Positions 39,189 to 39,644 of a stretch of 64,000 bases of DNA are shown here, piece by piece (the stretch's first letter is position 1; each line of letters opens with the position of its first letter). The position numbers and the translations under genes are program-made. Under the pieces are notes generated by a model. It was not told where the DNA came from. It saw only the letters and a program-made list of their open reading frames with translations, and did not search any database. Source of the DNA: Myxococcaceae bacterium (GTDB taxonomy: Bacteria; Myxococcota; Myxococcia; Myxococcales; Myxococcaceae); NCBI GenBank assembly GCA_044223505.1, contig JBGALX010000012.1:154174-218173 (forward strand), in the 5' to 3' direction.

Positions 39189-39644
39189 ATGCTTCGCCGC
39201 CAACTGCTGCTGTTCGGCGCGCTGCTCGCGCTGCTGCCCGGCGAAGCGCTCGCGCACGGCTACCGCCGGCGCCGCAGGCGAAGGCAGCGCCGCCGCCGCT
39301 ACCGCCGCGTTCGCCGCCGCATTCGACGGCGCGTGCGCTGGCGCGCGGTCGGAAAGCGGCGCGTGGTGGTGGCGCCGAAGGCGCCGCGGGTCGGCTGGGA
39401 GCTCGCCGTCTCGGGCGAGGGCCCCGCCGACGAGGTGGTGGTCGTGAAAGAGGTGAAGCCCGACGTGCTCGTGGTGGCCGGGCCCGACGGCAAGTCGCGC
39501 GAGGTCGAGTACGTGCAGGAAGACAACGACGAGAACGGCCGCGACCTCGAGGGCAGCGTGCTGCCCGACGGCGTGATGGACGGCCCGTACATGGAGAGCG
39601 ACATCAGCGAGTGGGAGCCGTACGAAGAACCCTCTCCCCCGTAG
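39189..39644 (+). CDS. Secreted protein made of a ~40-residue poly-arginine tract followed by an acidic C-terminal tail.
   Basis: Signal peptide MLRRQLLLFGALLALLPGEALA. Mature N-terminus HGYRRRRRRRQRRRRYRRVRRRIRRRVRWR. Acidic tail EDNDENGRDLEG...ESDISEWEPYEE. GC3 is near 95 % throughout the ORF. The TAG stop is supplied by REP element copy c. Confidence 0.5.
   Translation: MLRRQLLLFGALLALLPGEALAHGYRRRRRRRQRRRRYRRVRRRIRRRVRWRAVGKRRVVVAPKAPRVGWELAVSGEGPADEVVVVKEVKPDVLVVAGPDGKSREVEYVQEDNDENGRDLEGSVLPDGVMDGPYMESDISEWEPYEEPSPP

Follow-up and report, generated by a model that had tools for sequence, protein, structure and literature searches.

A conserved family of small bacterial proteins in which a polyarginine tract behind a putative twin-arginine signal is balanced by acidic charge in the same chain

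A stretch of 64,000 nucleotides from a Myxococcaceae bacterium (contig JBGALX010000012.1 of assembly GCA_044223505.1; the whole stretch is called the window below) carries at positions 39189-39644 of its forward strand a gene for a protein of 151 amino acids, in which a predicted signal peptide is followed by an arginine block, a small beta-rich domain and an acidic tail. The gene is real, is conserved under purifying selection and belongs to a family, apparently undescribed, that has a conserved arginine motif; the charge of the arginine block is compensated elsewhere in the same chain, and the block is predicted to form an ordered beta-strand. The best explanation that can be offered, tentatively and at somewhat less than even confidence, is that these proteins are self-neutralised polycations, exported by the twin-arginine translocation (Tat) pathway, in which a structured Arg/Glu zipper holds the arginines and which bind a polyanion of the envelope or matrix. 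In this explanation the Tat route and the identity of the partner strand are what we infer, and this is truest of the ligand and of its access through unmasking. The parts of the gene are:

39189-39644, forward strand: complete open reading frame (ORF), 151 codons plus stop; from the sequence, base composition at the three codon positions, homologues and purifying selection
39189-39254, forward strand: signal peptide, residues 1-22 (MLRRQLLLFGALLALLPGEALA); from the family profile, with predicted signal-peptidase I cleavage after A20-L21-A22
39195-39200, forward strand: twin-arginine pair R3-R4 in the motif [NDTS]-R-R-x-[FL]-[LIV]; from conservation in 78 members
39264-39362, forward strand: arginine block, residues 26-58; from composition, the strand in the AlphaFold model and the ratio of non-synonymous to synonymous substitution rates (dN/dS)
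39303-39344, forward strand: conserved periodic core of the block, residues 39-52 (RRVRRRIRRRVRWR); from alignments
39363-39404, forward strand: hairpin and barrel entry, residues 59-72 (VVVAPKAPRVGWEL); from alignments and model strands 57-62 and 71-74
39405-39566, forward strand: beta-rich small-barrel domain, residues 73-126; conserved motifs [RQ]-E-D-[TN]-x-[ED]-N (110-116) and L-E-G-S (120-123)
39567-39641, forward strand: acidic C-terminal tail, residues 127-151, net charge -8; from charge, the model strand and charge covariation

In genomes of high guanine-plus-cytosine (GC) content an open frame rich in arginine is as a rule an artefact, but the present one can be shown to be real. The composition of the tract is, by itself, within chance for the window: six-frame translation of this 71% GC sequence gives 88 stretches in which 17 or more of 34 residues are Arg, and among these the target ranks third, and it is conservation that makes the tract real. 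The frame begins at the first possible start codon, the ATG at 39189, with an in-frame TAG upstream at 39174-39176, and its translation is exactly the sequence quoted in an earlier, sequence-only reading of this DNA. GC at the three codon positions (GC1/GC2/GC3) is.80/.47/.91, and the excess of GC1 over GC2 is the coding pattern of the forward frame and indicates a real gene in such a sequence. GC3 is 91.4% over the whole ORF, 87.5% in the arginine tract and 93.9% after it; the earlier reading was right that GC3 is high, although its figure of about 95% overshoots the measured one. The other arginine-rich stretches of the window that were inspected are off-frames, in which GC1 exceeds GC3; they were rejected as off-frame shadows, and no paralogue of the target was found within the window. 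Comparison with the closest homologue, at locus L001, gave 85 identical codons, 32 synonymous and 27 non-synonymous differences, and within the arginine tract alone there were 13 silent codon changes. Over 16 pairs of homologues dN/dS ranged from 0.10 to 0.43 in the arginine block and from 0.08 to 0.60 in the following domain, and was higher in the signal peptide. The ORF is also preserved in orthologues, the absence of which the sequence-only reading had named as one outcome that would refute it, and its view that the frame is genuinely coding stands, with GC phase, conservation and purifying selection in agreement. Thus the proposal that an open frame rich in arginine has simply arisen from 71% GC, with no protein made, has a practically negligible chance of being correct: the abundance of arginine-dense frames in the window speaks for it, but it is already refuted by the conservation data, that is by the coding phase, the predominance of synonymous substitutions, the existence of 123 homologous clusters, the persistence of the family at 48-60% GC and the off-frame pattern of the other arginine-rich frames.

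Two antisense ORFs, 39150-39689 and 39299-40630 (both reverse strand), are conserved by BLAST at matching positions in 9-14 other loci. The second shares its third positions with the target, has GC1 and GC2 inverted and also overlaps a real convergent gene in another frame, and it is on account of this inversion and overlap that it is regarded as a shadow ORF. These conserved antisense ORFs merely mirror a conserved GC-rich gene and are a trap for gene callers.

The family was delineated by several searches. A search of 5.8 billion clustered proteins produced 41 homologues of 135-174 amino acids, all unannotated or labelled 'hypothetical', and a profile search of 1.84 billion representatives produced 123 clusters at 50% identity, nearly all of which are stand-alone proteins of 120-195 amino acids or fragments of such proteins. 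A genome scan using the single window protein as query gave no match; a scan of the GTDB species genomes with alignment A3 located 20 further loci, all of them in metagenome-assembled genomes (MAGs), from at least four phyla: Acidobacteriota (Thermoanaerobaculia, Vicinamibacterales, Polarisedimenticolia), Pseudomonadota (including a Piscinibacter MAG), Thermodesulfobacteriota and others. Among the named sources of the 41 homologues, too, there are MAGs of Myxococcaceae and Thermoanaerobaculia. The analyses below make use of two alignments, A1 and A2, and of a MAFFT alignment of the 78 full-length members, some of the statistics being taken over 91 members. An important consideration is whether the arginines are a by-product of base composition. 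The tract is intact in a genome of 48% GC, where it is encoded with CGT, AGG and AGA codons, and other members are found at 48-60% GC (e.g. RRHRRRVRRRVRRRIRRR, with 23 Arg), which argues that the arginines are selected for and do not simply follow base composition.

No significant match that would allow family assignment was obtained in Pfam, NCBIfam, PHROGs, PADLOC or PDB sequence profiles. Matches to HAD, Herpes_UL56, TT_ORF1, Circo_capsid, LapA_dom, anti-sigma and methan_mark_4 were rejected as compositional and sub-threshold, and P0145, a Gram-positive surface protein of 1351 amino acids that matched profile positions 83-113 ten times, was rejected as a repeat or low-complexity match. The family was not found in viral contigs, phage genomes or plasmids, and an origin in mobile elements was rejected on that account. 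Literature searches with the motif string, and with Tat together with polyarginine, found no description of it. The family thus appears to be undescribed, in that no curated family, solved structure or retrieved paper covers these proteins. Tat signals, Sec avoidance (that is, avoidance of the general secretory pathway) and charge-balanced precursors are known principles; what appears to be new is their combination in a stand-alone family that spans several phyla, with a twin-arginine signal ahead of an ordered poly-Arg beta-strand to which a strand of poly-Glu is zipped.

The arginine block of the window protein, 33 residues long, contains 23 Arg, 1 Lys and no acidic residue and has an isoelectric point (pI) of 12; the poly-Arg tract of the sequence-only reading is therefore present, at about 33 residues and not the 40 or so that were claimed. 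Its N-terminal part is variable in length, and its core follows the consensus RRRV-RRRI-RRRI-RRRV-x-[WF]-R (also written RRR-V-RRR-[VI]-RRR-I-RRR-V). R42, R43, R44, R47 and R52 are invariant in alignment A1, and the corresponding figures for the 78 members are 95% for R42, 91% for R43, 97% for R44, 99% for R46, 100% for R47 and 96% for R52. A hydrophobic Val or Ile occupies every fourth position of the core, and Lys is almost never accepted there. If the core is extended, as modelled, one face of the strand would be all Arg and the other would have Arg alternating with Val or Ile. After the core comes the motif G-R-R-x-[LW]-V-V-P-x4-5-G-W-E-L, in which P63 and the run G69-W70-E71-L72 do not vary (in the 78 members P, G and L stand at 100%, W and E at 99%), and a conserved T-P-G hinge stands ahead of the acidic tail. 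The (E/D-x)n segment of that tail, YMESDISEWEP, is predicted to be a beta-strand, and the tails of the family alternate as E-x-E-x-E. Residues 69-151 have a net charge of -18 and a pI of 4.05, in keeping with the earlier description of the second part of the protein as strongly acidic with a pI well below 5.

The structural predictions come from AlphaFold2 models of two different members, made with different alignments. The window protein, modelled with A1, had a mean predicted local distance difference test score (pLDDT) of 79, rising to about 91 for residues 40-110; a single long beta-strand (pLDDT about 91) spans residues 34-54 and is followed by seven further strands, the last of them the acidic 134-144. 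A 44%-identical member (P0040), modelled with 78 sequences, had a mean pLDDT of 88, with 96-98 in its arginine strand (35-56) and a terminal strand at 147-158 (GREVEIEEEVEV). Since DSSP reserves its 'E' for residues that take part in hydrogen-bonded ladders, the arginine tract as modelled belongs to a sheet. The arginine strand would, in these models, be attached to a small SH3-like barrel. Comparison with small SH3/Tudor/KOW-like barrels by Foldseek gave E values of at least 0.06 and template-modelling scores of about 0.2, which is noise level for family assignment. The family has no sequence-profile match to the SH3/Tudor/KOW-like barrels or to ribosomal protein uL2, in which basic extensions are joined to a barrel, and no solved structure covers the long arginine strand together with the acidic one.

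The relationship between the two kinds of charge was followed across the family. Over 91 members the cationic block has a mean charge of +16.7 and the remainder one of -12.8, the two being negatively correlated (r = -0.62); Spearman's rho is -0.64 for the family overall, and the mature protein is near neutral (mean +3.8, standard deviation (sd) 4.3, for 78 curated members; +8 for the window copy). In 38 disjoint sister pairs the differences in block and remainder charge were opposite in sign in 18 and of the same sign in 6 (p = 0.011). When the charge was partitioned into variable N-terminal arginine segment, conserved arginine core, barrel and tail, the variable segment (mean +8.8, sd 3.5) was found to covary with the tail (rho -0.77, p = 2.5e-16; sister contrasts 21:1) and more weakly with the barrel (rho -0.30), and the conserved core gave no contrast signal with either barrel or tail. 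The simplest reading of this locality is that the variable N-terminal half of the arginine strand pairs with the C-terminal (E-x)n strand, and that the conserved half would be held by the invariant barrel acidics E71, E111, D112 and E121. The suggestion of the earlier reading that an anionic piece masks the cation is supported by this covariation, both overall and between the variable segment and the tail.

The N-terminus has the organisation of a cleavable export signal, after which the mature part begins HGYRRRRRRRQRRRRYRRVRRRIRRRVRWR. In the 78 full-length members the two arginines of the pair are conserved at 100% and 99%, the residue before them is N, D, T or S in 75%, position +2 is F, L or V in 81% and position +3 is L, I, V or F in 94%; the final K of the Tat consensus is not conserved in the family. 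An RR-x-hydrophobic-hydrophobic arrangement is present in 90 of 91 members, and the motifs of distant members (NRRSFLS, DRRTFVS, TRRRFLS and SRRKFLA) fit the Tat consensus S-R-R-x-F-L-K. The hydrophobic segment (h-region) is of 11-24 residues (mean about 17; L 24%, A 23%, G 13%), with a mean Kyte-Doolittle hydropathy of 1.83, and between it and the A-x-A a helix breaker (P or G) is conserved. The cleavage-site profile has A (69%) or V (13%) at -3, A (82%) at -1, G (46%) at +1 and P (64%) at +2. Conservation of the (-3,-1) rule points to cleavage by signal peptidase and thus to the residues after the h-region reaching the periplasmic side. The 'canonical signal peptide' of the sequence-only reading is upheld as a cleavable export signal, but not as one of generic type, given that the twin-arginine motif is invariant and that the mature protein opens with a polycationic stretch.

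The choice of pathway is suggested by what follows the signal. Basic residues in the c-region of the signal peptide or early in the mature protein are Sec-avoidance signals that make Sec abort (PMC7317946), and the cationic block of this family starts only a few residues past the cleavage site, with a charge of +17 on average in the family and +26 in the window copy. From so large a basic block directly behind the signal peptide, together with the abortion of Sec by basic residues, we infer that Tat is the likely export route of the family. Tat substrates such as SufI and TorA of E. coli share with the family the RR followed by x-[FL]-[LIV], the A-x-A and basic residues past the h-region that serve in Sec avoidance (PMC7317946), and perhaps also an h-region that is A/G-rich and moderately hydrophobic. 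Most of the known Tat substrates, however, are amidases or enzymes with a cofactor, and close to their cleavage site they have one basic residue or a few, whereas here a block of +17 to +27 is the conserved core of the mature protein, there is no cofactor motif and the Tat hidden Markov models score below threshold.

On the explanation preferred here, then, the small protein would leave the cytoplasm through a cleavable, Tat-type twin-arginine signal peptide, and its run of arginines would be a long beta-strand of RRR-hydrophobic period and not a floppy cationic tail. The conserved half of this strand would be clamped to an SH3-like barrel bearing invariant acidics (E71, E111, D112), and the variable N-terminal half zipped to the C-terminal (Glu-x)n strand to give a near-neutral molecule. 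Thanks to neutralisation in cis, a segment of +17 to +27 could fold while still in the cytoplasm and would not adhere to nucleic acids, and the acidic strand would shield the cell from a +20 polycation before export. The folded protein would then be exported by Tat, since Sec could not be expected to cope with a block so highly charged immediately behind a signal peptide. Once outside, the arginine ladder may bind a polyanion of the envelope or matrix (lipopolysaccharide (LPS), phospholipid head groups, extracellular DNA (eDNA), polyphosphate or acidic polysaccharide), with the acidic strand as a displaceable, competitive mask. This last step, in which the ladder binds a polyanion and the tail masks it, is a doubtful one, though a real possibility. 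A role as a nucleic-acid or polyphosphate binder, which the earlier reading had also raised, is possible.

Some features of this scheme have parallels in known systems. HMGB1 has a C-terminal tail that is acidic and folds back over a basic surface, in competition with the polyanionic ligand, but binders of that type are intracellular and alpha-helical, with a disordered tail, whereas the present proteins have an export signal and both of their charge partners are predicted beta-strands. Protamines and the arginine-rich N-termini of viral capsid proteins resemble the family in a local arginine content of about 70% and in weak compositional matches to profiles (TT_ORF1, Circo_capsid). They are, however, disordered until nucleic acid is bound and are intracellular or intraviral, in contrast to a tract that has a fixed four-residue period, is predicted to be ordered (pLDDT 91-98), follows a signal peptide and carries its own counter-charge. 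The tract that the earlier reading called 'protamine-like' is set apart from this class of nucleic-acid binders by the conserved cleavable signal peptide and the predicted ordered strand.

A number of observations weigh against the explanation as a whole or against parts of it. The h-region of the window copy is Leu-rich, with a Kyte-Doolittle value of 1.94, and looks Sec-like. The Tat profile PF10518 picks up only 4 of the 78 members at E <=1 (the best has an E of 0.012 and scores 16 bits, where the cut-off is 22.7), and TIGR01409 only 1 of 78, below threshold; PF25471, a Rieske Tat-type anchor, matches at E = 6e-4, below its cut-off. The curated Tat profiles are short and insensitive, so that such scores lower the case for Tat and do not remove it. 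The partner of the arginine strand is a putative one, assigned from DSSP strand lengths and charge covariation, and AlphaFold may over-order low-complexity segments of opposite charge. Selection on net charge, with no physical contact, could also give covariation, though it does not easily explain its locality. Finally, all family members come from uncultured organisms, and no conserved neighbouring gene hints at a function.

The main rival of the polyanion-binding step is a permanent structural module, in which the Arg/Glu ribbon is never unmasked and is a rigid, salt-bridged, single-layer-type beta-ribbon of species-variable length, the activity residing on the barrel surface (GWEL, REDTxEN, LEGS), for example in the binding of peptidoglycan or of an envelope protein. 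That both strands are predicted to be very highly ordered is as this model would have it, as are the clustering of the invariant non-Arg residues in the barrel, the near-neutral net charge and a ribbon charge that varies widely (+8.8, sd 3.5) and is yet always compensated; ligand binding is, moreover, common among SH3-like barrels. A mere spacer, on the other hand, would need neither Arg at 95-100% per position nor a strict RRR-hydrophobic period, the near exclusion of Lys from the core is not accounted for, and the mature protein keeps a positive excess. On balance the structural module is considered unlikely. Less can be said for the analogy drawn in the sequence-only reading with antimicrobial-peptide precursors, under which the acidic part would be removed after export and the free poly-Arg peptide, as an antimicrobial or toxin, would kill competitors or prey. 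The charge balance hypothesis for defensin pro-pieces (Michaelson 1992, as discussed in PMC4571063) provides the precedent: the precursors of alpha-defensins and cathelicidins likewise have cationic and anionic segments in one secreted chain, their charges co-vary across homologues, and the cation/anion balance of the present proteins recalls their pro-peptides (PMC4571063). There is no relationship of sequence or fold to those precursors, however, and the family is bacterial, has the order reversed, with cation first and anion last, and shows no evident processing site or protease. In favour of the analogy are the export signal, the conserved T-P-G hinge ahead of the tail and the fact that some hosts are Myxococcota, as judged by the source name of P0011. 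Myxococcota are predators, but the family occurs also in non-predatory Acidobacteriota, Pseudomonadota and Thermodesulfobacteriota. The arginine block is under purifying and not diversifying selection (dN/dS 0.10-0.43) and its register is nearly invariant; the tract is predicted to be an integral, structured beta-strand and not a free peptide, and, as it is N-terminal and invariant residues join it to the barrel, would need a cut on its C-terminal side as well. Genes of bacteriocin or microcin loci (immunity, export by ATP-binding cassette (ABC) or peptidase-containing ABC (PCAT) transporters, maturation) were not found adjacent in 25 loci, nor was a protease gene; there was no PADLOC or PHROG match and no antimicrobial-peptide family in Pfam or NCBIfam, and no copies were found in phages, plasmids or viral contigs. 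The analogy thus fails on evolutionary mode, predicted structure and gene context, and such a precursor is improbable.

It may also be asked whether the protein is exported at all, since the N-terminus could be an anchor with its N-terminus out and its C-terminus in, leaving a cytoplasmic arginine block to bind anionic lipid, RNA/DNA or polyphosphate at the membrane. Such a topology is suggested by the positive-inside rule, the flanking charge being about +17 or more C-terminal to the hydrophobic segment against +2 N-terminal to it, and it is the one that would suit both the weak compositional matches to proteins with a transmembrane segment and an Arg-rich region (LapA_dom, Rv2743c/PspM, anti-sigma) and the fold matches, none of them significant, to nucleic-acid-associated small barrels (KOW, Tudor, EF-P, uL2). 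But the invariant RR, lying in an N-tail of 2-8 residues, would then need to be translocated, the conserved A-x-A at (-3,-1) and the helix-breaking P/G before it would be senseless at a junction facing the cytoplasm, and h-regions so short and so rich in A and G would be weak as stable anchors. This topology is regarded as distinctly improbable.

The genomic surroundings of the gene are conserved only locally. Loci L001, L002 and L008 have the same arrangement as the window, namely glk, DoxX, pgl, small secreted ORFs, the target and a convergent VolA/Pla-1-like lipoprotein lipase, and at distant loci the neighbours of the family gene are unrelated. In an all-against-all comparison of flanking ORFs from 25 loci no conserved operon partner was found, only the target gene and its antisense shadows recurring, and there was no immunity, transporter, protease or regulator partner among them. 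The 'cluster of small secreted proteins' of the sequence-only reading is borne out in part, in that two small neighbours have signal-like N-termini, but it is lineage-local and not a property of the family. One of the two (38308-38688, forward strand) encodes a predicted lipoprotein of 126 amino acids with a lipobox, LLVAC, and 11 cysteines; the other (38689-39153, reverse strand) is divergent, begins 35 bp from the target start codon and encodes 154 amino acids with a signal-like N-terminus. Neither has a family match, and their conservation extends no further than the close relatives L001 and L008. The convergent gene (39838-42513, reverse strand) encodes a predicted lipoprotein lipase of 891 amino acids (LVLAAC) with a bacterial Ig-like domain; its alpha/beta-hydrolase part resembles the VolA/Pla-1 phospholipases (TIGR03502, E = 4e-31, far below the family cut-off), and a weak Myxo_Cys_RPT match hints at a myxobacterial origin. 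Upstream, 36222-38311 is a sugar-phosphate cluster of glucokinase (reverse strand), a DoxX membrane protein (forward strand) and 6-phosphogluconolactonase (forward strand), to which L001 adds 6-phosphogluconate dehydrogenase.

In loci of Acidobacteriota type (L003, 7422-8761; L009, 420-3598; L010, 1-40) genes for a 4HBT thioesterase and an 89-amino-acid zf-UBP zinc-finger protein lie near the family member, and EamA and DinB genes recur in L003 and L010. This is the sole recurring neighbourhood seen and is probably lineage synteny; the four were rejected as functional partners for that reason, and histidine-kinase and response-regulator neighbours, present in 3-4 loci, were rejected as too generic. 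Scans for sigma-70 promoters and intrinsic terminators around the target gave nothing useful. The 3' end of the window copy has been altered by an insertion:

39628-39825, no strand assigned: inserted element of ~190 bp, resembling miniature inverted-repeat transposable elements (MITE) or repetitive extragenic palindromic (REP) sequences; from ~35-nt inverted repeats and absence from L001

The inverted repeats (39630-39664 and 39786-39822) each hold a G+C hairpin of 9-10 bp, the hairpins having energies of -23 and -25 kcal/mol. Syntenic L001 lacks the element and has a gap of about 48 bp to the convergent gene. The window copy has its final five codons and its stop inside the insertion, which has changed the ancestral ending EWEDPYD to EWEPYEEPSPP in this lineage only. 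A degenerate solo copy of the repeat end, the third in the window, lies at 14134-14172 (CCCTCTCCCCTCGTAGGGAGGAGGGCCGGGGTGAGGGG), about 18 bp past a TGA stop, and suggests a family of REP-like elements that land at the 3' ends of genes. Elsewhere in the window, short-period tandem repeats at 7256-7751, 19900-20176 and 24133-24400 read off-frame as Arg/His/Lys-rich or RRDG-type sequence (e.g. RHRRRKRH x n), with one codon position at which GC is nearly 1.0; presumably each is a repetitive part of a real gene, seen in a frame other than its own.

In its widest form the proposal is of an undescribed class of exported proteins in which a structured poly-Arg ladder of 15 to 25 or more Arg, neutralised in cis by poly-Glu and exported by Tat, serves outside the cytoplasm as a polycation that can be switched and that, like a protamine, binds its polyanion, here LPS, eDNA or polyphosphate. 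Taken in all its parts this is unlikely, but its consequences would be considerable. These proteins would be the most extreme natural Tat substrates in which the charge of the passenger forces the choice of pathway, and they would provide a natural test both of the amount of localised positive charge that can pass through the Tat translocase and of the way in which a polycation is kept harmless before export. The Arg/Glu beta-zipper would be compact and simple in sequence, of interest to protein designers and an example of a 'low-complexity' segment that is ordered. On the same condition the family would point to a possible and hitherto unknown component of the envelope or matrix in the abundant uncultured bacteria of soils and sediments, among them Acidobacteriota, Myxococcota and others.

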